Positions 12,071 through 56,330 of a DNA stretch of 64,000 nucleotides are shown here, piece by piece. The translations under genes and the position numbers were made by a program. Every line of letters begins with the position of its first letter. Positions within the stretch are counted from its first letter, which is position 1. Below the pieces are notes generated by a model that searched no databases, was not told the DNA's origin, and saw nothing but the letters and a program-made list of their open reading frames with translations. Origin of the DNA: Blastocystis sp. Blastoise (taxonomy: Eukaryota > Protista > Bigyra: Opalinata); contig JBBPEB010000020.1 in assembly GCA_039096225.1 (NCBI GenBank), forward strand, positions 186,001 to 250,000, read 5' to 3'.

Positions 12071-15000
12071 ATAAAACTAAAGAATATATAATATTATAAA
12101 AATGGAATAATTATTATTATTATAAAGAAAAAAATAACAAATATATTATTAATAGTCAGTTAAAACAAACTAAATATATTATTAAATACATATATACCTT
12201 AATGAAGACTTGAATCATTGCAATCTGATTCCCAGGTTGTACTTGAATACGCTAAGATTCTATAAATAAATAAGTAGAATAAATTAATAAAATTAAATAG
12301 AGTATATATATTAAAAGATAAACAAGATAGAAAAATAGAAAGCAATTCAATTGTAAAAAAAAATATATAAATGAAAATGAAATAAATATGTTATAGAAAT
12401 AATATGAATGTATTGATAATATAGAAATAAAACAGATATAACAAAGAATAAACAAAATGAGAAAATGTAAAATAATTATATACCTTAGATTCATCTTTAT
12501 TGTTCACCAAGACCTTTAGAGTTGATTTGAAACTAGATATAGCTTTTTCTGAATATCTAAACAATACGCAACCAATTGATCAACTGATTACTATATAAAA
12601 CAAAATATTTGAAGAGAGTAAACTATATAATATATATATTTATGACTAGAAAACATACGTAGATTCATTTTATATGTTTATAATGACAATATATGAAATA
12701 AATCAATATTTGAATCTCAAGAAATAATCATTCTGAGGATGGAAACAGGGATAAATCAGCCTAAATAGCGGAAACAACCTCTTTGATAAAAACTTTTTTG
12801 TGATTCAGTGAACAAGTTTTAAAAATAATTTCTAGAGATTCAAAGTTTGGGATAAAAAGTCTTTTTTGATATGGTCCCTATTCTTAAAGTTTTTTAGAAT
12901 TACTTCAATCCGTGAAAGTCTTATTCAGCATCGGCTTAAATGAACTGTTGTGGAAGAGTATATTTTTTAAATATTATTATATGGATTATTTAATTATTTA
13001 GAAGGTTATTTTATATTTTATAATTATATTATATTTTATATGCATATTATTATAGATTAGGAATGAAATAAATCCAAATAATAAGCCAATTGGTGATTCA
13101 TTCTTTCAGGTATATGTTTATTTGAATAATATTATGTATATAGGCTTAGAAACATAATCTAGGGAGCCTGATGACGTTCGCTATTCAATATTGGAAGAAA
13201 CTATATTTGTCATAATTTCTTGATTGGCAATTTTGGTTTTAGTATGCTCTAGTAGTATATTGTTTTATATTTTGTTTCTATATTTAATTATTATATAGTG
13301 AAGAATTTGAAAGAAAAAATTAAATGAATTGCATTTACTGAGAAGAATGTTACCTAGGTCTTTTTATTATTTTAATGACTTCTCTCATGATCTTACAAGT
13401 ATATATTTTTATTATTATCAATATACCTCATATTATTATATAGAAATGGTGAATGATCAGTTGTTTGAAGTTTTATTATCTTTCAAATTCATAGTATCAT
13501 TGAATTATTGAAGGTATATATATATATAATAATTATCATATCTTTTATAGGTATAACAGAAACAAAACAATGATTATGTCAAGATTATTTTAATATATAT
13601 TCAGTTAAAAGTATATATATTTATTAGAACTTAAACATCATCATCAATAGTTGATTCTGATATATATATATATATATATATATATTATTTATTTATCATT
13701 TTTATTCCTTTTATTCATTATATATATATAATATTATTTATTATATATTATCATATATAGACGTATTAATGATCACTTGGAAAATCAACTCATTATATAC
13801 ATATAGTATATATATCTACATATATTCTTGTTTATATATGTATATATATATATATTTATATTAATAACATATGTATATAGATTACATTATTTATTATAAT
13901 ATTTAAGTATTATCTTATTAGCAATCACACAATGTATATATAAATATATATTCCTATTTATTAATTTATATTTTAATAATTTGTCTAGAATATTTTGTAT
14001 ATAATATAATATTATGTTATACATTTTCTTTTTCTTTTTATAATCTATTGTTTTTTATTCTTAAACTTATATATATATATAGAATTATTACTGCCATTGA
14101 ATGGTTTGCTTTCTATAATCGATATTACTACATAATACATATTCTTTTTATGTAAATATATATATATGTTATATTACTTTTCTATTATTCTTTATCTCTT
14201 ATTAGTATTATGTTGTTTATTATCTTTTATTTTATTTTTAAACAATGATTATATATATATTATATTTCTATTATTAGCTATATGTCATTTTTTATATAGT
14301 GAATAGTTATTGTTATATTCAAGATTATTTTTTAGTATATATATATATTATATTATATATTATATTATATATTATATTCCATTTTGAGTTATATACTTCA
14401 TTCTTCTTTCATTTTTAATCTATAAAGTATGTAGTTTATACAAATAGATACGTTTTACTAATTATCATTATTTAGATTATTTATACTTTTTATTTCTTAT
14501 TCATGTTATTATTATTATTATTATTATTAATATTTATTATATATTCATTCTATATGTATAAATATATTTAATAACTATCACATTATATGTGTTTATTTAT
14601 TTAGTTTTATTTAGTTTTATAAGTTATATATATATATATACTTAGAGATATATATATATAAATTATTATTATGTATTATTTATTTTTATTATATTATTAC
14701 CATAATATGTCTATTTGCTTACATATGTATATATAGTTGTTTTATTTCATATTCAAACGTTGCTTTAGTGAACAAATATATATATTTATATATGATATTA
14801 TAGAATTATTTTGTATTCATTATATATATATATTATGCATTAATTTTTACATGTTTGTTATACTTAATATATATATATATATGTAATTATTTTATATCTA
14901 TATATATACATATATATATATAGATATCATTGATATTAATATTCAAAGTATATATATATAAACATATATAGACTTATATATAGTATTTTATATGTATTCA

Positions 15001-16081
15001 TATTATAATATATTATGTATAGTTTAATAGTTATATGTAAGTCATCCTTTCATGTTTCTTATGAATTTATATAAATATATTCCTTTAATTCTGATTATGT
15101 ATATATTATTATATATATCATCTTATTCTATATATATTATGTATTTTTTTATTAATATAAAAGATAATATTTTGTGTATTTAATATTTTATATCAATTAT
15201 TCTTCTATTTAACTCTTTTATATCATTTATCTTTCTACAACTTTATTATTTATTATCTTTTTTAAATACCATTTACCATATAGTTTATTATACATACATA
15301 TAGTAATAGTCATAGCGCTTCTTTATGTATGTTTTATTCAATTATGTTAGTATATGTATTGTGGTATATATGTATATTAATTGTCGTTTATTTATATATC
15401 GTTTTGTATTTATTTTGAAATAAAGATTATATACATATAGTTATTATGTATATATATATATATATATATATAACATTATTGATGTGAGCAATTTATTTTT
15501 CGTAATATATATTAAGTCTACTTCTCTTATATATAAATATATCTAATAATTTACTATATGTTTTCCAACTTTATATATATATATATATGTATTTACTATT
15601 TTCTATTATTATTATATATATATTGCTAATAAAATTAAGATATTGTCCAGGTAAGAATATATATATATATATATATATATATTAATTGTTTTTATTCTTA
15701 TAAGTATTATGTTCTTATATTATATTTAGATATGTTTTTTTCTTTTTGTTATTTTTTTTTAATTATACTGTAAATATAAATACATAACTTTCTACTCTGC
15801 TTATTACTTCTTTTATAATATATATCTATATTTCTTTCTATAAATATGTCATTCATCTATATGCTATTATATCTATTTTAGAATCCAAGCTCCTAATAGA
15901 AACTACTATAATTAATGATGATACAACCTTTTTGGTATATACATATTTATACTATTATTAGTTTTTTATAACTTATTATGTAATATTTTATTAATATTTT
16001 AACCAAATTTATTTATATATTATTATTCATTTTCTTTATTCTCTAACTATTTATAGAATGTATCTTTAGCTGGTCTCTCAT

Positions 16082-16119
<38 letters not shown>

Positions 16120-16322
16120 TCTTTATTACTTTATATTCTCTTTTTATATCTCTATTACATTATGTTTATCACTTATTGATATAAATCTTATTATAAGGTT
16201 TTCATTATATAAGTTAGTATAAATAGGCGTAATAGAGTATATATTTATATATATATATAATTATATTTTGGGTTTTTGTCTGTTAAACATATATACATGG
16301 TTATATTCAAATAATTAATATT

Positions 16323-16390
16323 CCTTAGACTGAATATGGTTAGTAGCAATCATTAATAGATTGTTATCAGGTTCAATTCCTGATCTAGGG
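16323..16390 (+). ncRNA. tRNA-like cloverleaf lacking the canonical inter-arm linkers
   Basis: Acceptor CCTTAGA/TCTAGGG, D arm CTGA-ATATGG-TTAG, arm TAGCAATC-ATTAATA-GATTGTTA, T arm TCAGG-TTCAATT-CCTGA. Confidence 0.65.
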
Positions 16391-16921
16391 TCATATATTA
16401 TATTTTTTATAAAAAAATTTAAATATTTTTCTCTATAGATATTCTCATTCATTAGAACCAGTATGAAAGGGTATATTGAGTTTCATGTAATTGAATAAAC
16501 TCTATACATTGCTAGTCGCTTTTCTATAATGTTTTTAGTTTACTATATTCAACACACAACACATTCACAATTACATTCACTACCGTCGTTTTTTTTTTTT
16601 AGTGAAAAGGTAGTTTGAAGTTTTAGTGAGGTTTCCCCAATAATTGTTTCGTGAAAATATGGGAATAGGTTTTCGTGATTTTGACGACAGGGAAAACAGT
16701 GAATAAGGATGACACACCCTAAAATGCCTAGAGTTTTACCGAAATATTTGTCCGCCAAAAGTCTAATTGTAAGAATTTTTAGCGTTCACTTTTCAGTCAT
16801 TTTTCAGGGTTATTTTATTCATTGGTAGCTTAATAAACGTTCATATAACAAAACAAACACATATATATAATATAAAACATATAATAAACATATAATAGAC
16901 AAATAATAATAATAATAAACA

Positions 16922-17567
16922 TTTAAATGGAACCAATCAACACTTATATCACACTCTCTAAGCATTGTAACCTATATAAAGATAATTATAATAATACAGA
17001 ACAATAATTAATTGAAATTAAAATTTAAATGATAAAAATATATATATACATTTTCGTTGTAAAACTGAGGCCGAACAGCAATACCATAGACACCTTGTAC
17101 TCATAATAAGCCTATATAAATTAAAATATTAGATAATTAATAGTATAAAATAGAATAATATTTACCATTGCAAGAATCCAAAATGAATAATAAGGAACCT
17201 ATACGCTTGCCTGTAATGCTGATCTATATATAATAATGATTAGATCCTTTAATAATAATAAATAATAATAATAACAGTAATAAATAATAATAAATAAAAA
17301 ATATATATATATACAATAAAAGCTATATAAATATAAGTGGGGTTAGTTAAAATAGGATAACGACAAGTAATATAGATAGATATATACCATTTTATATAAC
17401 TTCTTTCTGAGTCAAACGGATCCTATTCCTACAATTGTCACCCAACGATATAGAAGACGGAGAAAGCCAACCATTATAAGAGACAACGCAATCTTTAACT
17501 CCAAACGAGTATTATATACATATTAAGCAGAAACAAGCCAATACCGTCAACTATTACTAGAACCCAT
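16922..17567 (-). pseudogene. Small multi-exon host-like gene remnant inside the CACTA element, product unknown
   Basis: GC-richer exons bounded by TATAG/GTA splice sites, including an 8-nt micro-exon, join in phase: QKEVI*NAFIISITGKRIGSLLFILDSCNGLL*VQGVYGIAVRPQFYNENVTMLRECDISVDWFH. Premature stops are present. Confidence 0.5.
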
Positions 17568-19358
17568 AGTTAATAGATGATTCACAATAATTAATAATAT
17601 ATGTGAAAGAAATGTAGATAAAATGACTATATATGGGTATGATAGGAATTCAAAAGATCTGGGGTATATTAATAAAATAAACAAGAATAAACGAGATTTA
17701 TTTTTAGTATAAGACTCTATGTTTTATATAAAATGAATGGTTATAAATAAATAAGAGAAAAAGCTTTAAATTCATGAAAATATTTGATCTTTTCTCTATA
17801 ATTTGAAATTTGTTTATTATTTTGTCAAGTACTTTCATGATCAATAATAGCGTAATAAAGTATTGTCAGTGCAACTAGACTTGAGTGGTAATCATTAATA
17901 GAAAAAATAAATAAGAATTTGCATCAATTCAGTGTTTCTTAATTAATTCAACTAATTAAGAGTAAGTAATAATTATAGGTGTTTAGTGGTGTGTGTTGTT
18001 TGATTCATGATGGTGATATGTGATGAGAAATAACGATATTACAAAAACTTCAAAATAAATAGGACAATCTTATCGGGCTATTATATATATTTTTTAGTTA
18101 TAAATATTCAGTGAAAAGAGAATTTGTAAAGAAAATAAGAATAGAATTATTTATAGAATGAATCCAAAGAGAAATGTTAGACTATCATTATTATTATCAT
18201 TGACTCTTGCTTCTTTCAATAATTTAATTGGAATACAATAGATAAAAAGTGTATAAGACAGAATAAAAGTGATTACAAACATTTCTACAAAGTGAATTCA
18301 ACTCTTAAATAAAGTTTGCTGTATTTAAAAGCACTTAAAAAGTACTTTTTAACTAATATTTGAAAGTAGTTATGTAAAACAATTAGAAATAAAATGTTTT
18401 TTTGTTTTGATGTTCTTCAAAAAATAGTTTGTTGGATTTATTTAAATGTAAAGAGTGTTAATTAATGCATAAAATATTTAAAAACATTTTTTCTAGTATT
18501 TTATTATGAACTATCAATACAAAAATAAGTTTACATTATAAAACAAACATTTTTTGCTGCTTTTATTCTAAAACTAATAAATCATTTTAAATTGATATAT
18601 AATTCTCATTTTACAGTTCACAGACAATGTGTTCTTAGTTGGAGATCATTTGAGCTATTTTAATTATTTGATCATCATCATCTTTTAACATTCCTTAATA
18701 TGAAAAAACAAAAAATAGCTAATTTAGATTTAAAAGTAGTTTCTACAGTGGTTCTCAATGATATTATTTAAAAATTATAAAAAAAGTAATTAATTAATTT
18801 CATAAACTATGTTAAATTCTTGTAAAAACCATTTATATATGTGATAAATGTAGTTTTATTTACAACTATGATTAGATTGTGTAGTTATTTAGGTTTTATA
18901 ATTGTAATTCTTAGAAACCTTTTGCTCAAAGCATTTAATATGTACTTTTTGTGAAAATAGATTTCTGTAAAAGCCAATCTAGAATATATTTATAAGAGAA
19001 TAGTTGAGAATATTTAAAATAATTGTAATTCGCTAACTTATTTTATTTAAAACATCTAAACCAACTATTAAATAACTTATAATATCTAAATATTAATCAT
19101 TTAAATCAATAAGTAGTAAATAAAATATAATGTTTGGTAATTAAATGCTAATTATATTGATCGTAATTAGAAGAGTTCATTATATAAGTACTTACAGTAT
19201 TTTAATTACTTGTAATAATAATCATTTAATATATATTCTCAAAAGAAACAATTATCTTTGGAAAATCATTTTTGAAGATATTGATAAGGAATATGAGATT
19301 AATAAGAATAGGTAGAACTATATAAAAATAGAATATGAAGAAAAAATATATGTATAAT

Positions 19359-19422
19359 CCTTAAGACAGGGTTTGAACCTGTTTACACATAAATAGAGTA
19401 ACTTACCATTATAAGCTTAAGG
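19359..19422 (-). ncRNA. tRNA-like cloverleaf lacking the canonical inter-arm linkers
   Basis: Acceptor CCTTAAG/CTTAAGG, D arm CTTA-TAATGG-TAAG, arm TTACTC-TATTTAT-GTGTAA, T arm ACAGG-TTCAAAC-CCTGT. Confidence 0.65.
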
Positions 19423-19789
19423 GATATATGAATGTAAAGAAAATAATAATTATATTATTAGGGATATATATGTACCTACTATATATTATCTATACTATAT
19501 ATATATCGTTATATATTTTTATAGACAAATATAGATAGAAAAATAAATAGAGAGAATAGTAACTAGAAAGATAGATAGAATAAACACATAACAGTAAAAA
19601 TTCTAATTAAAACAATAGTGATTAAAATTTAAAAAAGTATATTATAAACTAAATAGAGGCAATTTATCAATGAATATATAATCATAGTAAACAATAAAGT
19701 ACATTGTGATTGAATGAAGGATATTATATAAAGATAAGGAGGTAATAGAGAAGTTGTAGAAACCAGATAAACATTATAATATGAATATA

Positions 19790-21770
19790 TAGGAAGATGT
19801 AAAAGAAAAAAGAAGAAGGAAGAAGAAGTAAGAAGAAGTAAGAAGAAGTAAGAAGAAGTAAGAAGATATAAGAAGAAGTAAGAAGAAGTAAGAAGATATA
19901 AGAAGAAGTAAGAAGATATAAGAAGAAGTAAGAAGATATAAGAAGAAGTAAGAAGATATAAGAAGACGAGATAAGAATAAAGAAGAATAAAGAGGATATA
20001 AAAAGAAGTAAGAAGAAGGAAGAAGTAAGAAGAATAAAGAAGATATAAAGAAGATATAAAGAAGATATAAAAAGAATATATAAGAAGATATAAGAAGAAG
20101 GAAGATGATATAAGAAGGAAAAAAGTGTATATAAAATAAAAGAAGATGACATAAGAAGGAAGAATAAAGAAGAAGATATAAAAATATATAAGATATAAGA
20201 TATAAGATATAGAAAGTAGCTGAAAGTAGCTGAAAGTAGCTGAAAGAAGATGAAATTAGATGAAATTAGATGAAAGTAGCTGAAAGAAGATGAAAGAAGA
20301 TGAAAGAAGATATAGAAAGATAAAGGAAAAAAAAAGAAAAAAAATAAAGAATAAAAACGAAGAAGATATAAAAAGAAGAAGAAGTATAATGATAAAGAAC
20401 ATAGAAGAAGATATAAGAAATGTTAAGAATTTTAAGGAAAATATATAAGAAGGATAAAGAACAAAGAAGAGAATAAAAAGAATGAAAAAGAAGAAGATAT
20501 GAGAAGGATAAAGAACATAGAACAATAGAGAATAAACATAACAAGATATAAGAATGAAGAAGAATATATAGAAGATGAATGAAGAAGTAAGAAAAGAAAG
20601 AATAAGTAACAAGATGGAAGAAGAACCAATGAAATCTTTAGAAGAATAAAAATAATACCTTAATAGATGGTTGATATTTATACCTATATATAATAAACTT
20701 AAAAATAGTTATAGAAATTATAGAAATAGAACAGAAGTATTATTAAATAATAAAAAATAAAAGCATATAATAAGAATAAAATGATATAAATATATATTTT
20801 AAAATAAAAAGAAAACAATTGATATATACGTGACAAAAGAACAAGAATCTAATGAAATCAGAATAGAAAGAAAAGGAAGGAAATGAATATATAAAAGATA
20901 GATTAATAAAGATATATACATCAAAATAATGAAGGTAATAAATGATTTGAATAATATATAATAAGTAAGGAGGAAGAATGAAGAATAATATGCAAAATAT
21001 GTAATAGAAAGCAGAAAACGAAGATAAAGATGAATTAAAATAAATTTAGGGAGGAGAAAAGGTAGTAAAGAGAGTTGAGATTGTATATAGACAGAAGAAG
21101 TTTCATGAAGAATAAATGAATGAATAATAAATATACTATATATATATATATATAAAATGAACTATAATACAAGATAAATATATAGCAATAAAAAAAATAA
21201 CATTAAAAGTGTTAAATAAAAAGATAAAATAAAATGAAAATCGAATATAATAATACAGAAAAATTAAGATAAAAAAATAGATAAAGACTGAATAAAATAG
21301 TATATAGAATAAGCAAAATATGTTCACAAAAGTACACCAAGAATAAGATAGATAGAAGTAGCATAACATATAAAGGGAAAAGTGAAAATATAAGTAATAT
21401 AAAAGGATATGTTTATAATAGTATGAAGATTTGAAGAAAACGAAAGGGATGAAAACAAAATAAGAGGCTGAAAATTTAAGTGAAGTAGAGTAGGACAATA
21501 GAATAGGTAGAAAGATATAAGATAGAATTAAAAGATGCAGAAATAAAGAATCAAAGTAGTAAACGTAATGGAAATAAAACAAAAACATAATTACAGTAAA
21601 AGAAGCTAAAAATAATAAGTATAAAATAATATGAAAATTGAAATAACAGGTATGTATAATAGAAAGAAAATTAAAAAAACAGCAAAAAGAAGAATAGATG
21701 AAGGATAGGTGAAGATAAATGAGGATAATTGAGAAGAAGAAGAAGAAGAAGAAGAATTGTCTGAACATAA
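19790..21770. repeat. GAA-rich low-complexity block (AAGAAGAAGT/AAGAAGATAT units)
   Basis: Direct inspection. Confidence 0.85.
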
Positions 21771-24725
21771 ATCAAGCCCCTTTACAATGACTAAGAAAAG
21801 AGAATACTAAGAAGTGAAAAGAATAAAATTTGAAACTATTTTTGAATATTTAATAAAACATGAAAGAAGAGATGTAGAAAAGAAGATCTAGGAACGAAGA
21901 AGATTCAATGATAAATGATGTTTGAATAAAGGAGAATAAGACAATTAAGGACTAAATGAGACATCTCTAATAACATTAAAAGACCTAGAAAGAGACATAT
22001 AAGACACATGATAATTAGTAACTAATATATAATAATAAATTCTTTATACTGAATAAATAACAATGAAAAAATAAACTAAATAATAATAATAATAATAATA
22101 AAACATAAAAGAAAACAAAAACAATAAATATTTATATACTGACTGGTTTTGAAAGACAATGCAACAAGATGATGGAAAGAATGAATCAAAACACATCAAA
22201 ATTAGTTTGTATCACCTATACAGATTAGAATAAATAAAATAAAATAAAACATACAACAAAATAAAAAAAGAAACAACACGTAAAATAAGATTCATCCTCT
22301 CAAAGTAGTTATTTGAATAGAAAACATAATGAACACTTGCCATACAACATCTTCAAGCAGTTAACAAAGCAGAAATCTATATATAACAAAATACAAAAGA
22401 AATGGGAAAAGAAGTTAATATATTTAAAGTCAAAATTATATATAAATTAATAACTGAAGATATTTAGTATTAGACTATTATAAAAGAATACAATAAAAAA
22501 TAAATAACTACAATAAAAAATATACAGGCAAACTAAGTTTTAGAATAAGTTAATATGGTCTGAATCATATTGTCCTGGATTTGCCATTAACATTCTCTTG
22601 GGTATAACATAGCCAGTTTGGCGGCTAAGAGTGGATAAAAAAAGTAAAATTATTTGGGGAACAACTCGGATATTGCGGGAAATATTTTTTGTCATTTTTT
22701 AAATAATACCAATTTTAGTTATTTTTGAGTGTTGACATTTAAAAAGTATTCTCTATGATATAGAAAAGAATAGCATAATCCTTTCTCGAATAAAAAACTG
22801 CCTTTACTCCATTATCAGTGAATCACGACTAGTGAAGAAATCAGTTGTTGTTGGACACAGACATGCATACAGAGCTTTACTATTAGTTGGGTGAATTAAA
22901 AAACTCATCTCTTATTATTTCACCACATAATTACGATCTTTCTCAAAATTAGCTGTTTAAAGTTCTAAACATGATTTTCACGTCATATACTATGCTCTAA
23001 ACACACATATAACATCATATTAAAATAAAGTCGCATATTGATGGTAAACCATAGTCAAATAAAAACTTTCTCTGTTCAAGTTTCTTTTTTGAACCGAGAA
23101 ATTCTGAGTCCCCAGGTTGTCTGGCGGAAAAACTGTTTACGAGTTTAGGCCAAACTATTTTTGATCAAAAAATCTGAGTCATTTTACTCTCTCTCTCACG
23201 GGGAAATATCAAGAAAAAAAGCAAAACGACAGTAGTGATTCACTTAGAATACCACATTCATTATTTTGTTTTGCTATATATCCTATTGATCAATTCTACA
23301 CACAAATAAAAAATAAATATTCATCAATAACACCTTGAAGTCTATAAACACGCAATGCATTCTTTGTTTATACTCTTAAAAAGCATTTAAATCATCTATA
23401 TTAATATGATTGACACTAAAAGTCATTTGTAACATTTATAAACCACTCTTGAGACTTTTAAAGAACCTTGACAAATCTACATTACCTAGAAAACTATTAT
23501 AATTAACTTTAGTTTATATAGGTCATAATTAAATTCAAATTACTAATAGAAAATTAAAATAACGACATTCTAACTCATAATATCAACTAGAAAAATCAAT
23601 TGTGTTTGTAACTTCTCTAAAATTGAATTAATTAGTGAAATATGTATTTAAATTAATGTTGAATTTAAATTTAAACACACACAAACTCACCTTTTCTGAC
23701 AGTTCTACACATTTAGGCAATCTAGTGACTATCATATAATCGACTAATTTTTGTTGTCTTCATCAAGTCTAGTGATTTCCTCATGACCATAACCATTAAT
23801 TTCATTTTATGTAACACTCTATAAATAATTAATCAATTAACTAATTTTATTTACATAAATACATACTCCATCAACAACAAGAAGACATCAGGAGTAAGAA
23901 TAACGGTTTAAAGTATTTAAATAAAATAATAAAAAATAAAAAGTAGAAATATTAAGATTTCAATAAAATTTAATAAGTTAATTTATAGTGAAGTTTCAAT
24001 AATCATATAAAAAATATGATTAATTTCGTTTTTGTATGTTTTAAGTATATATTTATCTATATATAGGCCCTAGGAGTATAGTAGAGTACCTTCCAGTCTC
24101 CATTGGCAGATTGATCTGTTGTGCTATGTTCTCTTTCTCTATGGTGAGCTTGTCTGAGTGGTGTAAAGTGGTTGAGCTAGATGGTCTGCTATTGTATTGT
24201 TGTTTAAATTGGATGATGTGACGTCACCATACAAAGTTATTTCTTTAGGCTTTCTCACTGAGTAGCAATTGGTGGGTTATATTAACTGAGCGTGGTTCAA
24301 TACTTTAAAAAAAAAATTACTTAATTGGATAAACAGATTGGTCTTAAATTGCAGAGAAGCATGGATCTCTTCACTTAATCACTACCTATGCAACTCAAAT
24401 GCTTATAATTAGAGTTAATTTGTATTAGTCATATTCAGATTCTAGATGTATATATTTTCTGCATTTGTTTTCTTTATAATTATAATTATAATATTATATA
24501 GATATTTATATAGGTTATTATATAGTTATTAAGCCTAGTTCTTGTTCTTCTTGTCACTAACTTCTTGGCTTTTCTTATTTATGTATATATATATATATAA
24601 TTGACTTTTTTTTATTTTGCTTATATATTATTATTTTCTTTATTATTAAGAATTACTTTTATTTTTCTTTATTATTAGTTTAATTCAATATATTTATAGA
24701 CTTATTTATATTTTTTATTCTTTTT

Positions 24726-24764
<39 letters not shown>

Positions 24765-24779
24765 CAAAACTTTTATATA

Positions 24780-25947
24780 TTTGTTTTTCTTCATTCTTAT
24801 TTTCTCCTCTTGTCCTGAATTGGCCTTGTTCTCCTCTTCTCTCTTCCATTCATCTACTCTCTAGTTTTTACTCATTTTTATTCTTATACTCTTATGTTAT
24901 ATAGAACAGTTATTGTTTTTCTTAATATTACTTTATAGTATGTTTTATTTCATGTTCTTCTATTCTATATTCTAGTTTTTCCTTCACTTTCTTCTTTCCT
25001 CCATTAATTATTACTGGTTCTTCTTCTCCTATCATTACATACTCTCTTCATTTCAATCTCTTTATCATGATCGTCTTCTTTTTCATTTCCTTCAACTCTT
25101 CCTTTTCCTACTCTTCTTCTTTATTTCCTTCTATATTATTACTTCTTTTTCTCATCTTCTTCCAATTATACTTTCCTTATTCTTTATTCCTTTTGATTCT
25201 CATCTACACATTGTTTCTATTTTCCTTCTTCTTCTATATATCCTTATTTTTTGTCTCCTTGTTCATTCCTTTTTCGTTCTTTTTCATCTATTTATCCTTC
25301 TTCTATTTATTTTAATTCTGAATCACCTTCTTTCTCTCTCCTTCTGTTTCTTCTTCTTCTATTTGATCTTATTTTTCTTCTTCTCTTCTTCTTCTCTTTC
25401 TATACATCCTTCTCTGTATATTCTTTTTCTTTCTATCTCCTTCATCTACATTTCCTCTTCTATTTATCATTATTCTTATTCTACATTTTCTCCATATTAT
25501 TCTCCTCCTATATCTTATGTACCTCCTTTATCTTCTTATTCTTCGTCTATGTCTTCTATTTATTCTTCTTCACCTTTTTTCTTCTTCTATATATATATAT
25601 TCTACTTATTCTTCTCTATCCTTGTCTATATATCTTTCTTCTATATTTTCTGCTTCTACTTCTTCTTCTATATCTTCTATTTATCATTATTTTCCAACAT
25701 ATTTTTCTATGGTACTTCTTCTTTTCTCTTCCTTCTCCTTCTTTTCTATATCTTCTGTTTATCTTATTCTTCGTCTATATATAATTATTCTCCTTCTTCT
25801 TCTTCTTTATATATATATTCTTCTTTTTCGATATATTCTTTTTTTTTTTCTTTTCGTTCTTTTCCTTGTTCTCCTTCTCAATCTCCTTCTCTTCATTGAT
25901 ATCCTTCTTCTTCTTCTATTCATCTTTTTCTCCTTCTCCTTCTTCTT

Positions 25948-25978
<31 letters not shown>

Positions 25979-26218
25979 TTCTTCTTCTTCTTCTTCTTCT
26001 TCTTCTTCTTCTACTTCTTCTTCTTCTTCTTCTCCTTCTTCTTCTTCTCCTTCTCCTTCTTCTTCTTCTTCTTCTTCTCCTTCTTCTTCTTCTTCTTCTT
26101 CTTCTTCTATTCATCTTCTTCTTCTTCTTCTTCTTCTTCTACTTCTCCTTCTCCTTCTTCTTCTTCTTCTTCTATTCATCTTCTTCTCCTCCTCTGTCTC
26201 CTTCTCCTTCTTCTTCTA

Positions 26219-26251
<33 letters not shown>

Positions 26252-27100
26252 TTCTTCTTCTTCTTCTTCTTCTTCTTCTTCTCCTATTCATATTTCTTCT
26301 TCTTCTTCTATTCATCATCATCTTCTTCTTCTTCTATTCATCTTTCTTCTTGTTCTTCATTTAATCCTTCTTCTTCTTCATTTAATGCTTCTTCTCCTCC
26401 TCTGTCTTCTTCTTCTATTTATCCTTCTTCTCTTTCTATTCTCCTATATATCCTTTATCTCCTGTTTTTCCTTCTCAATCTCCTTCTCTATATCTCTTTC
26501 TTTTTATCCTTTTTCCACTTTTTCTATATTTTTCGCTTCTTATCTTTCTATATCTTCTGTATATCATTCCTCTCCTTCTTCTTCAGCATCTTCTTTTTAT
26601 ATCTTATAATTCTTTCCTCTTTATATTATTCTCATTTCATTCCATTTCATCTATTTTTCTATATCTCATTATTTTCAATATTTATTATACAGAATATCAT
26701 TTATATTTAATGTTTTTCACTTTCATTATCTTTTCCATATACATTATAGTCTTATTTGCTTTTCCTACATCTTCACTTGTTCTTCTTATGTGTATTCTCC
26801 TCATATTTTTATTTCTTTTCTAATAGATTTTCCTTTATAGTTCTTCTAACTCTTCTCTACATTCTTTCTTCTTTATCTCTTATACTTGACTTTCTAGTCT
26901 CCATCTTTCTTTTTTTTTTATCTTCTTATCTTATTATCTATATGTACTTCCTCTTCCTCTAATTCTTCTTTATACATATAAATTCTTTTCGCTCTTTATC
27001 CTTCTAATCAATTCCTTCTTCTTCTCATTTAATTAATATTTTTCTTCTTCTTTATTTATTTTCCCTTATTCTCCTTATTCTTGTCTTCAATTTTTTTCTA
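24780..27100. repeat. TTC-rich low-complexity block
   Basis: Direct inspection; (TTC)n core at about 25930-26340. Confidence 0.9.
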
Positions 27101-27342
27101 TATTCAATTCTTATTTTTCATTATCTTTTATATCTATATATATATATATATATATATACATACTTCTCTTCATATTTTAATTATTTCTATCTGTTATACT
27201 TATTAATATAATATTTATTTTTATTAATAAAAAGATTTTCCCATTTTTATTTCTTATTTATACTAATTATTTCATTAATTTATATACTACTTATTTATGT
27301 TTTTTTTTATATATATTTTAATATTTTTTTATTTATTTATAA

Positions 27343-27400
<58 letters not shown>

Positions 27401-27444
27401 TGGATATTATGTATTTTAATATTATTATCATTATTATTATTACT

Positions 27445-27510
27445 CTTATGCTCTATAAGGTGAGAGGCTATCATAATTAGATAGCAATCAGGTTCAACTC
27501 CTGACATAAG
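27445..27510 (+). ncRNA. tRNA-like cloverleaf lacking the canonical inter-arm linkers
   Basis: Acceptor CTTATG/CATAAG, D arm CTCT-ATAAGGTG-AGAG, arm GCTATC-ATAATTA-GATAGC, T arm TCAGG-TTCAACT-CCTGA. Confidence 0.65.
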
Positions 27511-28730
27511 TCATTCCTTATATATATATATATATTGATATTTTATTTAATAAACATTTTAATTATATGTTCTTTTTACACTTATGAATGCATTTATTAA
27601 ATTATTTATAGCTCTTCATCCTTCAAAACTTCATAGTTTCTGAAATGAGTTGTAATCTGTTTTATTCTCAACAGTGTATCTTATTCAAAATATGTTAGAA
27701 TTGAGTTAAATGCAGTTTTAAAACTTAGATTCATTTTTTATTTTCAAAATATACTCAAATACAGAGTATATTCAGCAATCATTAATAATTTAATGACTGT
27801 AGTTTATTATTTTAAACTGAATTCTGGTCAGTATGCTCAACATAAGCAACCAAACACAACACATACACATTCATGATTTTTAAACAACATTTTCCATTTC
27901 GACATTTACTTGATCCATTATAAAACTATCTGTCCTTTTGATATAGTATAGAGAAACTAATACCATATACCAATCAAAACTTGTTAACATGAATCTCGTC
28001 ATCTATTAAATATTTTTGTTAATCAATTCACAGTTCATACTCTTAAAACAGTTATTTGAGATTAATATTTATATATTTGTCTTTAAACAATGTAACTATG
28101 ACATTGTAATAGTATATATGAAAATATAAAGAATCAACAAATCTGTTAATTATCAAAAAATAAGTTCTATTTTCTAAAAACATCTTTATAATATTTATAA
28201 ACTCATATATTATAAATATATAGATCTTATATAAAGTATTCATTGATTAATTTAATTTGTCAGTAAATTAAAAGTATGTTATATAACGTAATTCTATGTT
28301 ATCTTTTTAATGAAGTTTATTTCATAGCTGTTTATGGCTTATTTGTCTATCAAACTTATTTTTTAAAACAATTACAGACAATTATGTTATGATCCTTGTC
28401 TATATTGTTATTCTATTGAATTAATAGTATAAATACAAGTTATATAACAAAATAAATGTATATATTGATTAAAATAAGGAATGAATATAAATAAATAAAA
28501 ATAGATAAAATTGCCAAAAAGAAAATTCTTAGAATTATATAGTACAATAAACGAACTTCTAATAGAAACTTAAAAATCGATTGATTGGATCAAATTGTCA
28601 AATCCTAACGTCATAATATGAATTATTCTTTTAATTTTTTATTAATTTAAATTCTATAAATACATCTAATAAACACGGTTATTATATAAATTAATACGAT
28701 TGGACAATGAAATCAAAATGTTAACAGATA

Positions 28731-28816
28731 TTTTTGGGTATTTCTACCAAATCATACAAAAAATTGGGTATGTATACAAATCAATAGGGAAATCTGGGTA
28801 TTTCTAACATTTTTCC
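28731..28816 (-). repeat. Right TIR of the MULE with TGGGTATTTCTA repeats
   Basis: Three inverted copies of the left-end motif. Confidence 0.85.
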
Positions 28817-29344: not shown

Positions 29345-30391
29345 TTAATTATATTGATAAGGTGCACCATGATATCTACGTTTCATTGGATATGGTGAAA
29401 AATATTTCATTTGTTGATCATGTAAGATTTGTTCTTGTAACATTTGCATCACACTTTCTTTTGGTTTCTCTTTTTCATCACGTTCTAATCCTCTTAATGG
29501 TATCTCTTCTTGATGAGGTAATATTTTTTCTAATTTCTTAGGAATTCCTGAATCTACTTTAATTCTTTTTCCTGGAAATAATCCACCACCATTACCTTTA
29601 CCTTCTTCTTCACGTTTTTCTTTATCTTCATCAATATCTGTCCATTTACGTTTAGCTACCATTTTATATGCATTTTGTTTGCTACCAACATCAGGATTAA
29701 CCCATGGTATTAAATCATCACAACCTTGTTTTAACATAAAAAATTGATGTTTATCTTCCATTAATTCTGTATTTTGTAAAATTTCTTCTAAATTTGGTGG
29801 ATCTATTTGTAATTTTTTAAATAATAAACCAGGATCACGTTTTAATATTTGACTATTAATAAAAAAATGACTTACTTGACTTAATACACTTTGATTAGTA
29901 ATATCATTATGACTTTGTAAACATATAATAGCATTTTGTTTATAATGTCTACCTTTAGATAATAATGAAATTAATAATAATTTTGTTTCACGTGATAATG
30001 GATATATATCATCTAATACAATGAAATTGTGTTCTGGTAATTTATAAGTAGAAACTAATTCATCAATTGTTTTTATTTTTTTAAATTTTGCATCAATACT
30101 ATCAAACCATTGATATTTTATTTCAGCATGTTCTAATAAATCTTGTAATGATGTATAGCATTCATTCATTGAACTAGCTTTTGGTGAAAATAATGTAACT
30201 TGGCGGTATTTATTATTTAAATCCATTGTAGCCAATAAATTTACCGCCAACCAAGATTTACCACTAAATGTTCTAGCTATCATTAATATAAATTTTGATT
30301 CATATGTTTTATGATGTGTTTTACCATATTTAAATGCTAATACACCACAACCACTACGATCTTCTTTTAATGGATTCACGGTTTTTACCAT
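29345..30391 (-). CDS. A32-like (FtsK/HerA) DNA packaging ATPase
   Basis: Walker A ARTFSGKS, Walker B FIVLDD, Arg-finger SKGRHY followed by IICLQS. Confidence 0.9.
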   Translation of the reverse strand: MVKTVNPLKEDRSGCGVLAFKYGKTHHKTYESKFILMIARTFSGKSWLAVNLLATMDLNNKYRQVTLFSPKASSMNECYTSLQDLLEHAEIKYQWFDSIDAKFKKIKTIDELVSTYKLPEHNFIVLDDIYPLSRETKLLLISLLSKGRHYKQNAIICLQSHNDITNQSVLSQVSHFFINSQILKRDPGLLFKKLQIDPPNLEEILQNTELMEDKHQFFMLKQGCDDLIPWVNPDVGSKQNAYKMVAKRKWTDIDEDKEKREEEGKGNGGGLFPGKRIKVDSGIPKKLEKILPHQEEIPLRGLERDEKEKPKESVMQMLQEQILHDQQMKYFSPYPMKRRYHGAPYQYN

Positions 30392-31180: not shown

Positions 31181-32479
31181 TTAATTCATAGCTCCATCTC
31201 TAACAAATTTAACAAAAATAAAATGAATAAATAATTCAACTTTATGATCTGTTGTTTCACTAGCTCCAAATTTATAACCTGTACCACAAGGTGATGTTTG
31301 TATATAATAATTTATTTCACAACCTGAACGTGTATTAACATCAACAACAGAACCAATTGGAAATAAATAAATAGGTTGTTCATACCATTTATCACCATCT
31401 AATACACACATAGGATTAGATTGTGATCTCCATATATTATATAACATATTATTAGGTATAGTTTGTAAAGAAGTAGAAGTACCTGGTATTCGACGTGTAG
31501 CTGTAGGAAATTGTGTTTGTGTAAACATATTCTTTCCACCTATTTGAAAATTAATAGTAGTTGGTGCTTCTAAATTAGTAGGTACCATAGCATCTTTAGC
31601 ATAAGTTAAAAACATTAAACAATAATCAGGAACAAAATTAACACTTCTATTTTTACTTGTAGTAAATTCACTTTTAAGCATAACTGCATTACCTGCTGAT
31701 GCTTTTACTGTTTCTTCACCTAAATCATCAACAAAATAACTTATTTGACAATTATTTGGAATACATTTAATTAAATTTCTTGCATCATTACCCCAATTAA
31801 TATCATACATATGCCTAAAATTCATGAATGCTTTATCTAAATTAAATTCAGAAAAACAATCAGTTTGACTAGCTAATTTTGTTAAATAATTAGTAACAAA
31901 TTGAAATTTCATAGTTTTTAGTTTAATAGCACAATCAAATGTACCTAAACCAGTAATTAACATTAATGGAATTAAAATTTTAAAAGTAGTAACAGTATCA
32001 GATTTAGAATTATCTATCATATAAGCTAATGTTTTTAAAGATGATACATTATCATATAAATTTTCAACTGTAGCATATATAGATTTATCTAATTCAAATT
32101 TACTTAATTCTTTAATAGCTATAAATTTTCTAGCTTTACTACTATTTAATGATGGTTCACTATAATTAACAGCTATATCTGTTCCTGTTGGACTAATATA
32201 TACCATATCTACAGTAACTTTATCTATTAATGCATAAATATTAGAATGTTGTATTAATGAAGCTGAAGTAGAATCTTTAGTTTTCTTTACATTTAACCAT
32301 AATTCTAAATAAGAATTACTAAAATCAATATATGGATTATCAACTGTATTATAATGAAAATCAAAAGTATATGGACTAGACTTTAAACTTTGATTTGTAG
32401 TAATAGGAATAGGAATTTGATTTTCTGTAATAGTTTGATGATTTTGTGATGGCATAAATTGTTTTGGGAATCCATCCAT
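31181..32479 (-). CDS. Major capsid protein paralog 1 (double jelly roll, predicted)
   Basis: FDF..YIDFSNSYLELWLNV N-terminal motif, IPLMLI, PDYCLMF and PIYLFP; 432 aa, beta-rich, within the morphogenesis cluster. Confidence 0.7.
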   Translation of the reverse strand: MDGFPKQFMPSQNHQTITENQIPIPITTNQSLKSSPYTFDFHYNTVDNPYIDFSNSYLELWLNVKKTKDSTSASLIQHSNIYALIDKVTVDMVYISPTGTDIAVNYSEPSLNSSKARKFIAIKELSKFELDKSIYATVENLYDNVSSLKTLAYMIDNSKSDTVTTFKILIPLMLITGLGTFDCAIKLKTMKFQFVTNYLTKLASQTDCFSEFNLDKAFMNFRHMYDINWGNDARNLIKCIPNNCQISYFVDDLGEETVKASAGNAVMLKSEFTTSKNRSVNFVPDYCLMFLTYAKDAMVPTNLEAPTTINFQIGGKNMFTQTQFPTATRRIPGTSTSLQTIPNNMLYNIWRSQSNPMCVLDGDKWYEQPIYLFPIGSVVDVNTRSGCEINYYIQTSPCGTGYKFGASETTDHKVELFIHFIFVKFVRDGAMN

Positions 32480-34206: not shown

Positions 34207-37200
34207 ATTTTTATTAATTTGTTTAAAAAAAAAAAAAGATTTTTAAAATAAATTATTAATTAAATATTATTTTAAATCAGTGCCTTCCCAACTTTTTATG
34301 ACACTTGCGGCAACTTTTTTGTGACACTTTTTTTCAGCCAAGCTTAATTAGACTGAAATAGGATTATTATAACAATCAACTAAAGACTTCAATAATTTGA
34401 AATACTATAAATGATGATGTTAGAATACTTCATAATATATAGTTCTTATATGATAATAAATATAAATTATGACTATAATCAATTATCCATTCCATTATAA
34501 TTTCAAAATACTCTTAATATTTTATTATGACTTTTATTAGCATATATTAATTTTAAGTAACATATATAGTACAAAATCAAAAAAAAAATAAACAATAATT
34601 ATGACTTTTAAAGAAACGTTGTTGTCAAAAATGTTTATAATGATTTAGAAAAGAATTCACAGTGATATTAGATGATGTTTACTAAATTTTAAAAAATTAG
34701 GAGCAATATATGTAAGAAGAATTATTTGACAATTGTAATAATCGACATAGAACGTTCAAGTTTTCAATAAGTTAAGTAACTACAACTAAAATACAGTTGA
34801 TAATATCTTAAACAGATCAACATTTATATTTGAAAAATAAGAATGATTAATAACTGCCAGTAAACTGTGCTTATATTTTTATAAAATAAATGAATCAAAC
34901 AGAATAAGCTATATTGTATATATGCATTACAAATTTAAAATTATATGATACAATTACAAAACTGATCCTTATAAAAAGTTATTAGACAGCTTAAATGTTG
35001 TTTCAATCATAGTGTATTGTGTATATTCATGCATCTTTCAACATTTTAATATAAATAAAAATAGCACATTGTATTATACCATATTCTAAGAAAGTGTCAG
35101 CCTAATATTCACAATGGAATGAAGTAAAGTATATCAAGTAATGGCCATGATCATACAAATATTATAGAATTAGATTAATCCAATAATAGAATAAATAATG
35201 TTTTATTAATTCATGAAAATTATTGGTTTTTCACTTAAAATTTGTAAAAATTCGATGATTATTCTATTTGTAAATTAAATTTATTATATTTAATTAATGG
35301 CTTCAATTTGGTTATTATCAATCTTAATCTATAATTCTATTGTATGAATAACTTTTATTTTTATTGTATTATATAGAAATGCTAAAAAAAGTTAATTCAT
35401 TCTACACATTTCTATACAGTTGTCTTTATATAGATTATATACTGGCTCTTCAGTTAAGCATGTGTTCAACCCTTACAATTCTAATATGAAAACAAATTCT
35501 TAGACATACGTATGTGCAATTGAAAGAAGATGTTGTCGTTGTTGATCATGTATTTCTTATATTATTATTATTACTTTATATAGTAAACAAAATAGTTAAG
35601 AATTCATGTATAATCCATCATTAGAAAAGACATTCGTTCTTTTCTTCTTTATAAATAAAATGGTCATTCATTTTTAATATTTTTCAAGGTATTTTTAATT
35701 GAATCAATCATTTATATATATTATTAGACTACACAGCGGTGGATTCATGATAATTACTAATTCTGATAAAGGTATATACATGTTAATTATTCGATTATGT
35801 TACATATCTTATTACTTTTATTAATAATTATTTTTGGTTTATTAAAATATTTATTTCTTTTGAGTCACATATTTAATAATTCATTTATTATAATTAAATA
35901 ATAGTTTATCTTTTCTTTCACCTTATAATTACTCTATAGGTTAAAATTTGTTAGTCTATTACTACATCATTTCAAACTCTCTTAAATCCATAATTACTCA
36001 TACTTCTTGTTCTATATACCGTTTGGTCTATCTTGAACAGTCCTATTTTCAATTTTTAATAATTTATTCCCTTCGTTGTGTTTCATTTATTCTTAAATCA
36101 CTATTATTAACAATTATCTTCATTAGTTAAAATTTAATTAATAATTATTTTTAGCCTACTTTCTCTTCTAATTACAAACTGATTACTATTACATATCAGC
36201 TTTTCATCTTCAATTGTGTCATCATTATTATACCTTATTTCATTTTGATTAAACTTAGTTCTTCTTCTTAATAATATGTATTCTTTTAGAGTAACAACGA
36301 CATTAGCAGTCTTTCCTATAATTGATTTCATTATCTTTTTAGCCCTATTCTTATTTTTGTATACATAACATCTTCCTTGACTGCATAAGTATTATGTCAC
36401 ACTTCAATAACCATGCAAAATGTTTTCCTATATTTAAGCTAATTTTCTCTATTTATTGATAATATTTTAATAATTCAATATATTTATTATTTCCAGAATT
36501 ATTAGTGATAATTGTCAATATACATCCTCTTTCATTAAAGTATCCTCAGTTCTTATGACTTCATTATTAACTCCTTCTTTCTTATCATCAAATATCTTAA
36601 TACATATTGAATTTCACATTTTTTAATAATTGAGTTTGGATTTCTCTACAAATGTTTGATCATTCCTGTATTTTATTTTCATTTCATTTCCATATCATTA
36701 GGGTTTTCATTATATACATCTTCCTAGTTTTTATATATTTTTTTTGAATGACTTTTATTACTATTCTTGAACACAATTACTTTTCCATTCTCATTTCTCT
36801 TTATATATATTAATATTAAAAAATTTCTTCGATATATCTTCCTTTGTGTTCTTCTTTAATAACGAGTTTATATATACATTTACTCCTTTTATATGTTTCT
36901 ATTCTTCTTATTCCAATTAGTTTTAATCTTATTTCATAATTAATATCCTTAATTTAGTTCATGTAGCGTACGGTGTCTCACACACTTTCACATTTATTGA
37001 CTTTGTTATTAACTTTTATAAAATAAAAATAACATCATAAAAACCGGAACACAATTCTGAAAATGACTGTTAAAGAAATTTTTCGAAAACTCTAAATTTC
37101 TGGCTAAAAAACGCAAAAAACCATTTTCGCACAAAATTTTAACCAAAATTATTGGATTATTTCTATTTTATCCAATATTTTTCATTTTAATAAAAACACT

Positions 37201-37609
37201 TATTTTTCGTTTTTTATTTTTTATTGTTTTCTTATTTTTTCTATATCTACTCACATTCTTTATATTTATTTTTATAAAATTGACTTTTATTGACGGGTTA
37301 GTCTAATAAATAGTTTTGACGGGTAAATTTGTTTATATTTAGAAGTTGACAACATATCAATACACACATCACTAACTATAAACTCTAAAACCATTTTATA
37401 TGCAATGATACTGACCTCAACTACTCTGAAACAACAATAATTCCTTTAAATAACAACAAAAGACAAACTGATATCCAACACATTCCTTCTTTATAAACTT
37501 ATTTGAGTTTATTCAAGTGATTTTGAATCAATACATGTCAGAAATATGTCTTTTAGTTGTTTAAAAAGTTTTCATAAGAAAATATTTGATAATAGAAATT
37601 TTGATGTTT

Positions 37610-38850
37610 TGATAGTATAGTTTGTTATTCGTCTTTCTCCTTGAGTTTTGGGTATTTTTTAAAAATAAAAGTATAATTATAATTAAGATAAGCTATTGCA
37701 GATACATATTTTTTATTTTATCTAAATATTGAATATTGACTGAGAAACATTCATTTATATGAAAAACATAAAAATGAAAATTTTCAAAAAAGGGTATAGT
37801 TTGTTATTGTGATTTCTCAATCAATTCTTAATAAAATAAAAAAGTTAAAACATATTTAGAAACTAGACATGTCATAGCAGATACATATTTTTCATTTTTT
37901 TAATTAATTGAAAACTCAGGTGACAAGAGTCAATAGTTGAACTCAATAAAAAATGACTTTCAAAAAATTTTCTTAAAAAGTTTTCATTTGTTTTTTGTTT
38001 ATATTTTCATCATTAACAATTTTATTTGACATTTTACTTTATATTTAAAAACTACATACCAAAATAAACATATTTTACAATTTTATTTTGTTTTTAAAAG
38101 ACTTTAACAACAGATCACCAGACAATGTTAACTCAATAAACTCTTAAAACGTTTTAATATGTGTTTAGAACCACTCATAGACACTGAATATGACTTATTT
38201 GAAAAAGTTAAGACAACATGTTGAACTGATACAGACAATGTTTGTTTTAAAAAGTTAGTTATGAGTCTTTATGAGTTGTATATGTCATAAATAAGCTTAA
38301 AATAAATAAATAAGTTTTTAATTGTCTTTAATTAGTGAAATAAATCGTTTAAAAAAAGAAAACATTTTTGATACTATAGTTTATTTTGACAATTTCTCCA
38401 TCAATATTAATTTTTAAAAAATAAATAAAACTTATATATAAACTAGACAACCTATAGTTTATATATTGATAAAAATCTTATCAAAATATATAATAACTTT
38501 TGAGATAAAAAATTATATATGAAAAACATAAAAAAATTAATTTTTGAAAAAAGGGTATACTTTATAACATTAATTTCTCAGTCAATATTTTATTATTTTA
38601 TATAATTTTAACAAATAAATACATAGAATAAGATATATTAATTATATTATTTTTAATATTTGAAATTAATAAAAAAATGAGTTCAGTAGAGTCAATAGTA
38701 TAACATGTTAAAAAACTGAAAATTGAAAAATCGTTTTTCTAAAAATTTTCTGAAAGTTGACAAATCAAATTCATATTTGACAATTAATTTTTACATATTT
38801 GAAAACTAGACATTATATGTATTGCATATCTCAAAAAAATGGTCAAAAGT
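37610..38850. repeat. Degenerate ~180-bp repeat units
   Basis: TATAGTTT..TTTCTC motif at about 37612, 37792, 38372 and 38553. TATATGAAAAACATAAAAA..AAAAAAGGGTATA occurs twice. Confidence 0.6.
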
Positions 38851-40459
38851 GGAGTTGACGAGTGAATGAGTATATGCACATGTTGGCTCATAATTTTATA
38901 AAAAGTAGTTCAATATGTCCTAAACCACATATTAGGACAATTCTATAAATATTATCACTTTATAATGAGTTTAAAGGGTAAAATAATTTTGAATTGTCTG
39001 TTTGACTGTCTTAAGTGAAGAGATTCAAGTCACTTTTTGTAAAAATGAGTATTAGAGTGTTTAATGTTTATAATAATAAAAGAATTGTTTGAAATAAAGG
39101 TGGTTGTGTGTTTGACCAAAATGTTAAAATGAGTCTATTTTAAAAAAATGGTTAGAATAAGAAAGTATTGAGTGTTTTTGGAGTATTTTATATTAAAATC
39201 TACAATAAATAAACATTTTAAGTTGTTTAAAAATTTGATTCTTTAGAATTACAATAGTTAAGTCAAGAGATTCAAGTCACTTTTTATAAAAATAATAAAT
39301 AGACTTATTATAGAATATAAAATATTAAAAATTAGTTTAATTAAACATGGTTGACTGTTTGATAGGAATGTTAGAATGGGTAAAAAGATTTTAATTGTTT
39401 CTAAAACAGTATAATACGTTTTTTTGTCACTAAATACAAAAATATTATTGTTTAAAGAATGTTTTTTATCTTTCAAAAGAACTCATTTTTTGTAATTGTG
39501 ACTTTAAACAAATGAAATTCAAGTTACTTTTTATAAATTAAAATAATAAATTAAATATATATGTATATTAGCATAAAATTAGTTAAAATAAAAGTGGATA
39601 TGTGTATTTCAAAACGTTAAAGTCTTTTAGAGTTTTTTTAAAATAACTCATTTGTTTTATAAACTATATTTTATGTATGATAGTTACAGTTTTTAAAGTA
39701 CTAAATCTATTTATGATATAGAATGTAATTTTTGGTTTATATTTAGTTTTTCGTTTCATTTAATGAAATGATTTTGAAAACATTATAAAAAATGAATAGA
39801 TAATTTTTAAAAATAATTCTTTTTTTCTTTTATAAAAGAAATTCTATATATGATAAATATTTAGAAAGAACTCTATGAGTTATTATCGATTATATAGAAT
39901 AATATATATATTTTAATTATTAAAAATATATATATATTTTTTTAAATCCAAATTGAAATAGGAGTAATAAAAAATAATAATATTATAAACATTTGAATCT
40001 GATAGTATTAAAATATAGTAACTATTACATATAATTAAACATTTATTAATAAGAAAAGGGGTATAATAAAATATTAAATATATATATATAATAGTATATA
40101 TAAAAAGAAATGATAGAATATAAAAAATCAAATAGAGATAAAAATGATAATAATTTAAAATGGAATAAAATAATATATGAGAAAATTTATAAAAGAATAA
40201 ATAATATTTTTTAGACAAAAGAGTAAGTTCTTTCTCATAATAATAATTATATAGAATAATTAAAAATAAAAAATAAATTCTTAAAGATAAGAAATAACTG
40301 ATAATAATAAGTTTTAAAAGAAAAAATATTTTATAATCATAATAATATTGTTTAAAGTATAAAATATTTATAAAACTAAATGAATTTATAATTACAAAAA
40401 CAGTTATAAATAAATTAACAAAGAAAAGTGAATTAATATAGAAAACTAAAATATAAATT

Positions 40460-41424: not shown

Positions 41425-41461
41425 CAAGCGTAGGCTGGCGTAGCCAGTCGTGAAACGCTTG
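41425..41461 (+). other. Isolated GC-rich hairpin, possible Helitron-type 3' end
   Basis: CAAGCGT..ACGCTTG enclosing GGCTGGC-GTA-GCCAGTC, ending CTTG|T. Confidence 0.4.

Positions 41462-50029: not shown

Positions 50030-56330
<6,301 letters not shown>

Follow-up and report, generated by a model that had tools for sequence, protein, structure and literature searches.

Pack-CACTA elements of Arabidopsis are mobile and flanked by 3-bp target-site duplications (TSDs) (Catoni et al. 2019, PMC6379663). In rice and maize, Pack elements of the MULE (Mutator-like element), CACTA, hAT, PIF and Mariner types are found side by side (Gisby and Catoni 2022, PMC8903248), and 370 Pack-TIRs, named after their terminal inverted repeats (TIRs), were reported in animals, a share of them being transcribed (Tan et al. 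2021, PMC8277862). Rice Pack-MULEs are mostly 1-2 kb long, with none above 7 kb, in the account of PMC6431247, which also cites enlarged En/Spm (CACTA) elements of 16-20 kb with 4-5 open reading frames (ORFs) in Chondrus crispus. As for transposons in viral DNA, the Ngaro retrotransposons of Cafeteria burkhardae prefer endogenous virophages (EMALEs) (Hackl et al. 2021, PMC8547959), and a MELD/Polinton-like virus was described in Blastocystis hominis data (Starrett et al. 2021, PMC8502044). We analysed a stretch of 64,000 nucleotides of Blastocystis sp. Blastoise (assembly GCA_039096225.1, contig JBBPEB010000020.1, positions 186,001 to 250,000 of the forward strand; hereafter the window, with positions counted from its first letter). 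It contains a CACTA-type element of 6.66 kb, and we consider it likely that this is a non-autonomous cut-and-paste transposon carrying the relic of a host gene, nested in a MULE-type insertion within a decaying Polinton-like provirus.

A sequence-only reading of the window had proposed CACTA..TAGTG termini with 15-bp TIRs and an ATT TSD at this place, and these ends are real and of CACTA type. From position 16578, the left end reads CACTACCGTCGTTTT, and its inverted partner stops at 23237. The two TIRs match at 14 of 15 positions and, when extended, at 20 of 23, and the pair ranks best among the 316 CACTA..TAGTG pairs of the whole window; shuffled sequences lend it further support (see below). 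The terminal pattern, with up to two mismatches, is found at only these two sites of the window (expected 0.11). A TSD of 3 bp is given for CACTA elements in PMC6379663, and one place in PMC8903248 says 5 nt. Translation of the interior in six frames, read through stops, revealed no Pfam family, bar one weak unrelated match on exon 1 of the relic alone (E 0.089), so that, judged by Pfam, the element is non-autonomous. Its sole intact long ORFs are low-complexity frames.

The proposed nesting also holds, as the element lies entirely within a MULE-like insertion with the 9-bp TSD TTTATATAT on both sides. This insertion divides one virus ORF into two parts (28781-29302 and 4936-6210), and its excision in silico restores 591 codons in one frame, with no stop before the terminal one; insertion into the ORF is thereby proven. 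The TIRs of the insertion consist of a ~25-bp imperfect match and a motif present three times at each end, with no long continuous TIR. Because they are short and imperfect, its designation as a MULE is owed mainly to the 9-bp TSD. Pfam searches of three stretches, covering 3.1 of the 15.9 kb outside the CACTA-type element, found neither a Mutator transposase nor any identifiable gene. A PH_9 match in one of these stretches (E 5.8e-4) was below the cut-off and was not accepted, no stretch having passed. MULE domains number 26, 4 and 15 in the published tortoise isolates, according to the supplementary InterPro table of PMC10690189.

Near its left end, the CACTA-type element harbours the spliced pseudogene anticipated from the letters. 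On the minus strand, three introns with GT..AG borders (17387-17224, 164 nt; 17165-17112, 54 nt; 17049-16972, 78 nt) coincide with three joints in contigs of a sequencing run, X1, that skip exactly 164, 54 and 78 nt at a depth of 26.6. A 339-nt X1 contig of the same depth shows no difference from the window over 17388-17550, and all three joints presumably belong to this one contig, as the depth is shared and the lengths add up. G+C content is 9-15% in the introns and 37-39% in the two internal exons. Read in its three frames, the spliced sequence is interrupted by 15, 11 and 4 stops; the lowest of these counts, over 176 codons, compares with 12.8 expected (P=0.0035 for that frame, the best of three). 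These stops lie at 17549, 17525, 17414 and 17103. Since those at 17525 and 17414 fall inside the perfectly matching stretch of the contig, the transcript carries them, and the relic is best read as the transcribed remnant of a coding gene. A fourth X1 joint (16965-17402, with a side of 23) was set aside together with two others (18200-24626 and 24105-24205), all being short-sided or non-GT-AG. Two further runs, X2 and X3, gave only AT-rich pieces of 31-53 nt and one 34-nt match, with next to no shared words, and the absence of X1 coverage at either TIR carries no evidential weight.

We propose the following history. A transposase from elsewhere in the genome would have mobilised the CACTA-type element into the cargo of the older, 22.6-kb MULE-type insertion. 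The virus would have come first and the MULE-type insertion second, and the CACTA-type element may have entered the latter before or after its arrival at this site. The interior would be genomic host DNA that later decayed through premature stops and, since the introns are retained, it would have been captured as DNA and not via RNA. The relic is probably still transcribed, either here or at an identical copy.

Several results weigh against this account. First, the ends might be a chance inverted match in AT-rich cargo, in which case the 6.66 kb would be a piece of the genomic segment captured by the MULE. In block-wise dinucleotide shuffles of the window, a pair with at least 14/15 matches and a TSD arose in 4 of 200 and in 5 of 1,000 cases, meaning that 0.5-2% of shuffled windows pass the basic end test, and many windows were scanned. 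Arrays of subterminal repeats are a feature of the CACTA superfamily; no such arrays were found here, each end having one inverted heptamer. No empty site (a joint of 16577 to 23241) was detected in runs X1-X3, and neither an empty-site 24-mer nor the right-TIR 23-mer matched metagenome contigs, where the host is probably absent and which are thus uninformative. The same collections yielded no second full copy of the element, no ORF is interrupted by the 6.66-kb stretch, and a search of the window for a paralogue spanning the empty site showed the joined flanks aligning with other units solely upstream of the junction.

Other evidence nevertheless speaks against coincidence. None of the 1,000 shuffles additionally reached the 20/23 match, a stricter test picked once the ends were known, and in none did the 200 bp next to each end share a GC-rich inverted heptamer, a post hoc test. 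The heptamer, itself chosen post hoc, has a third copy in the window at 54605 (expected 0.45). Both ends of the element are richer in G+C than the MULE cargo, with CpG observed/expected ratios of 1.21 and 0.87 versus 0.39 and 0.35. Finally, the right subterminal region has matches in two X1 contigs, over 22792-22918 (13 differences in 127) and 23140-23202 (10 in 63), and both contigs continue into DNA unrelated to this site. Judged by eye, the second has the heptamer at the same offset, and loose letters at its 3' side resemble the run-up to the TIR. Short and of depth 2-3, neither contig shows the terminal 5 bases, and they hint, thinly, at diverged relatives with other interiors and hence at a family. 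On balance, we regard a chance match as very unlikely. In a separate search, the 65 single matches of the TIR 15-mer in viral contigs were attributed to chance, as alignment with the window at E<=0.01 extended none of them past ~40 bp.

Secondly, rather than a Pack element, the 6.66 kb could be a decayed deletion derivative of an autonomous element of the CACTA/CMC type, the relic being what is left of its own multi-exon gene or a non-coding transcript. Autonomous CACTA genes contain several introns. A host parent of the relic was not found in Pfam, among proteins of 196-2000 residues or among 1.84 billion representatives, bar one repeat-driven match; the sequence searches used exon 1 (111 residues) as the query, and exons 2-4 were scanned against Pfam. 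Moreover, run X1 consists of contigs only, its RNA nature is a guess, and it may share a culture with the window. We also looked for a partner transposase. No En/Spm, DUF4218 or Plavaka row is present among the 7,778 InterPro rows for eight Blastocystis proteomes in the supplement of PMC10690189, in which MULE, hAT, Harbinger and Tc1 domains do occur, so that no CACTA partner transposase is on record. A very divergent transposase could give the picture seen here. An exact look-up of 10 ORFs from the CACTA-type, MULE-like and hAT-like insertions found 9 absent from the protein collection. What argues against a deletion derivative is that the least-interrupted frame is hydrophobic and shows no transposase family even through stops, that the tRNA-like unit and the purine-rich tract inside the element resemble those of the MULE outside it, and that the diverged relatives appear to have other interiors. 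We therefore hold this second origin to be unlikely, and continue to favour a Pack-type element with host cargo.

Table 1. Features of the window discussed in the text (positions count from the first letter of the window; a dot denotes no strand)
Feature	Position	Strand	Basis or remark
CACTA-type non-autonomous element	16578..23237	.	6,660 bp; six-frame translation free of transposase domains
Left TSD, ATT	16575..16577	+	sequence inspection and terminus pair scan
Left TIR, starts with CACTA	16578..16600	+	14/15 and 20/23 match with right TIR
Right TIR, ends with TAGTG	23215..23237	-	terminus pair scan
Right TSD, ATT	23238..23240	+	terminus pair scan
Subterminal GC-rich heptamer TGGCGGA, inverted relative to right-end copy	16751..16757	-	chosen post hoc
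Subterminal heptamer TGGCGGA	23122..23128	+	same offset in one diverged X1 contig
Cargo gene relic, hydrophobic product	16915..17725	-	three GT-AG introns, four premature stops
Relic exon 1	~17725-17388	-	5' end uncertain; contig from 17550
Relic exon 2	17223-17166	-	
Relic exon 3	17111-17050	-	
Relic exon 4	16971-~16915	-	3' end approximate
Degenerate tRNA-like unit with T-loop-like motif	19350..19424	-	alignment with 27442-27512
Purine-rich low-complexity tract, 10-bp tandem repeats	19700..21800	+	limits approximate
MULE-like insertion, imperfect TIRs	6235..28816	.	22,582 bp; 9-bp TSD; ORF repair
Packaging-ATPase-like ORF	29345..30391	-	phrog_2666, E 3e-10
Predicted double-jelly-roll (DJR) major capsid protein	31181..32479	-	TM 0.67 to DJR-like cluster, predicted models on both sides
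Capsid paralogue	32578-34206		29% identity
hAT-like insertion, CAG termini, imperfect short TIR	34278..57914	.	23,637 bp; 8-bp TSD TTTTAAAT
hAT transposase-like ORFs	43914..47729	-	Atlas features 0.92-0.93 to DUF4371/RNase-H-like/hAT clusters
Intron-containing UTP20 fragment inside the hAT	50051..55317	-	multi-copy among named Blastocystis proteins

The element was also said to enclose one cloverleaf unit, a description that stands in part. The unit at 19350-19424 is tRNA-like, bears a T-loop-like motif and aligns with a second unit at 27442-27512. ARAGORN made no call on it at the default or a relaxed score, Rfam gave no match, and minimum-energy folding yields a structure other than a cloverleaf. 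The second unit is called by ARAGORN with a score of 102, compared with 51 for the best of 30 shuffles, a score inflated by its AT-repeat flanks. A third, at 16322-16392, completes a trio of related, AT-rich tRNA-like units. All of them follow an AT-repeat stretch, and two have a kilobase-scale pyrimidine-rich tract further upstream on the same strand. The trio is possibly SINE-like (short interspersed nuclear element) or a repeated cargo module.

Elsewhere in the MULE cargo, a GC-richer, exon-like stretch at 24060-24450 is matched by several diverged X1 contigs of depth 3-28, and exon-like pieces alternate with AT-rich, intron-like stretches at 12200-13400; neither corresponds to a Pfam family. 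Near the MULE ends, purine-rich and pyrimidine-rich tracts at 8000-12000 and 24800-27100 have opposite orientations and are ~70% complementary over 250-300 nt of low-complexity sequence.

The DNA into which the MULE-like insertion landed encodes a predicted DJR major capsid protein and a packaging-ATPase-like protein (Table 1). The two capsid-like paralogues are arranged in tandem (31181-34206) and are 432 and 542 residues long. A single-sequence AlphaFold model of the capsid candidate was unusable, with a predicted local distance difference test (pLDDT) value of 29. The virus ORFs are intronless and reach both edges of the window, and neither PolB nor an integrase was recognised among the window ORFs. 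Neither an A32 nor a viral PolB domain is entered for the tortoise isolates in the InterPro table of PMC10690189, and the virus thus appears to be unannotated. Paralogues of three virus ORFs are present on three other contigs. One virus gene, at 61139-63633, is interrupted in the window by 4 stops and a frame change and is intact on other contigs, at 772 and 775 residues; the provirus copy in the window is thus decayed. No relatives of the viral ATPase were confirmed in viral contigs.

The sequence-only reading had further suggested that endogenous viral DNA acts as a tolerated landing site, which is plausible, if weakly so. Two of the three insertions, the MULE and the hAT, lie in viral DNA, and the pile-up may have arisen because selection acts only weakly on dead proviral DNA and on transposon cargo. 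Alternatively, DNA transposons could prefer endogenous viral DNA as the Ngaro elements do in Cafeteria virophages, where 91% of type 1 Ngaros lie within EMALEs (PMC8547959), and two top-level insertions of more than 22 kb within 17.8 kb of viral sequence would fit such targeting. However, the CACTA-type element sits in MULE cargo and not in viral DNA, and elsewhere the virus genes have paralogues that are unbroken. In addition, when the 11 listed UTP20-fragment accessions are compared with those of the genes in the three other viral copies, none falls within 100 numbers, the nearest being at 106; in the window, the UTP20 fragment adjoins a virus gene. This comparison, which assumes that accession order is gene order and leaves at least 4 UTP20 places outside the list, speaks more for tolerance in a single dead copy than for targeting. 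We see very little likelihood of targeting, slightly less even than of a chance match at the ends, and retain weak selection as the explanation that we prefer.

The second insertion in viral DNA, a hAT-like element with transposase-like ORFs and an intron-containing UTP20 fragment, is the best case of cargo at this locus, ahead of the CACTA-type element. Its hAT dimerisation domain was detected at E 3.5e-4 and 20.7 bits, just under the Pfam cut-off of 21.4. A first search for the UTP20 fragment among proteins of near length gave no match. At 99% identity, the exon at 50362-51060 matches a protein that NCBI assigns to Blastocystis sp. Blastoise, and the corresponding cluster comprises 5 truncated sequences at 15 contig places. 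Over the tested exon, the copies agree at 208/212 to 211/213 positions, and the fragment in the window lacks the last 180 residues of longer models. In the supplement of PMC10690189, isolate Rus-B (the same as Blastoise) has 21 UTP20-N and 5 DUF4371 domains, as compared with 0-2 and 0 in nine other genomes. The UTP20 copies presumably all lie between hAT ends, and the element carrying them probably went through a recent burst. This giant hAT with its amplified UTP20 fragment is the strongest new fact of the locus.

The hAT also contains long tandem arrays at 40470-41030 (6-bp unit), 47690-48490 (~95-bp unit, upstream of the transposase-like ORF) and 51620-52030 (3-bp unit, in a UTP20 intron). 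Close to its right end, two tRNA-like units with A- and B-box-like motifs (56556-56632 and 56922-56996, minus strand) belong to a different family from the trio described above.

The initial view that three DNA transposon superfamilies carry cargo at this locus can accordingly be retained for the hAT, with its multi-copy UTP20 fragment, and is likely for the CACTA-type element, with its intron-containing relic; for the MULE, no identifiable gene was found in the three stretches scanned. As for cargo capture as a general property of this genome, the basis consists of one locus and the UTP20 counts.

The host belongs to the tortoise clade of Blastocystis. The G+C content of the window, 13-35% per kb, and its long AT-rich introns fit the tortoise-associated clade of PMC10690189. 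A reading of TGA as Trp was rejected, given 11 TGG and no in-frame TGA codons in four host or transposon stretches, and 39 TGG across all eight stretches examined; as these were selected for being open, the weight of the test lies in their length.

With less confidence, we put forward as a possibility, one that we would not yet back, that this tortoise-gut lineage is being reshaped by giant cargo transposons of three superfamilies. These would include a MULE of 22.6 kb, a transposase-bearing hAT of 23.6 kb whose UTP20 fragment was multiplied about twenty-fold, and a CACTA-type family with a divergent transposase that evades current profiles and a cargo that is still spliced. All would be stacked in dead Polinton-like proviruses and escape standard repeat annotation. 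If our reading of the locus holds, Pack-type capture would extend to a stramenopile gut protist, at three times the maximum that PMC6431247 gives for rice Pack-MULEs, and an odd table entry would be explained, namely the 21 copies in one isolate of a ribosome-assembly domain that is normally single-copy. The gene counts and repeat content of that genome would then be mis-estimated, and a CACTA-type family would exist without an annotated transposase.

Among the literature matches listed, subscription journals and Repbase aside, we found no report of gene capture by TIR transposons in Blastocystis, and the main text of PMC10690189, its journal version aside, does not mention CACTA, MULE, hAT or UTP20. 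Gene capture by several superfamilies and transposons in endogenous viruses are already published, and what is new here is the lineage and the 22-24 kb size.

Of the described systems, the closest to the CACTA-type element are the Arabidopsis Pack-CACTAs (PMC6379663), which are likewise non-autonomous, with CACTA-derived TIRs and a 3-bp TSD; their interior derives from the host chromosome, as that of the Blastocystis element would. In Arabidopsis, both CACTA1, the partner, and the source genes are known, and elements were observed to move, whereas in Blastocystis, a stramenopile host, neither partner nor parent was found. The En/Spm elements of Chondrus crispus similarly illustrate CACTA elements with extra content beyond land plants; at 6.7 kb, the Blastocystis element is smaller, and its intact long ORFs are low-complexity only. 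The provirus resembles the MELD virus of B. hominis (PMC8502044) as a mid-sized double-stranded DNA virus sequence with divergent virion proteins, a likeness by description, the window having no recognised PolB or integrase. Like the Cafeteria EMALEs (PMC8547959), the locus shows transposons nested, in several layers, in a capsid-encoding DNA virus endogenous to a stramenopile. The insertions in Cafeteria are retrotransposons with a measured preference, and those in Blastocystis are DNA transposons of three superfamilies, for which no preference is shown. Lastly, as in the Pack-TYPE elements of rice and maize (PMC8903248), MULE, CACTA and hAT elements with host fragments would coexist in one genome. 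Unlike these and the Pack-TIRs of animals, they are found in another lineage, the MULE and the hAT reach 22-24 kb, and the hAT bears its own transposase-like ORFs.

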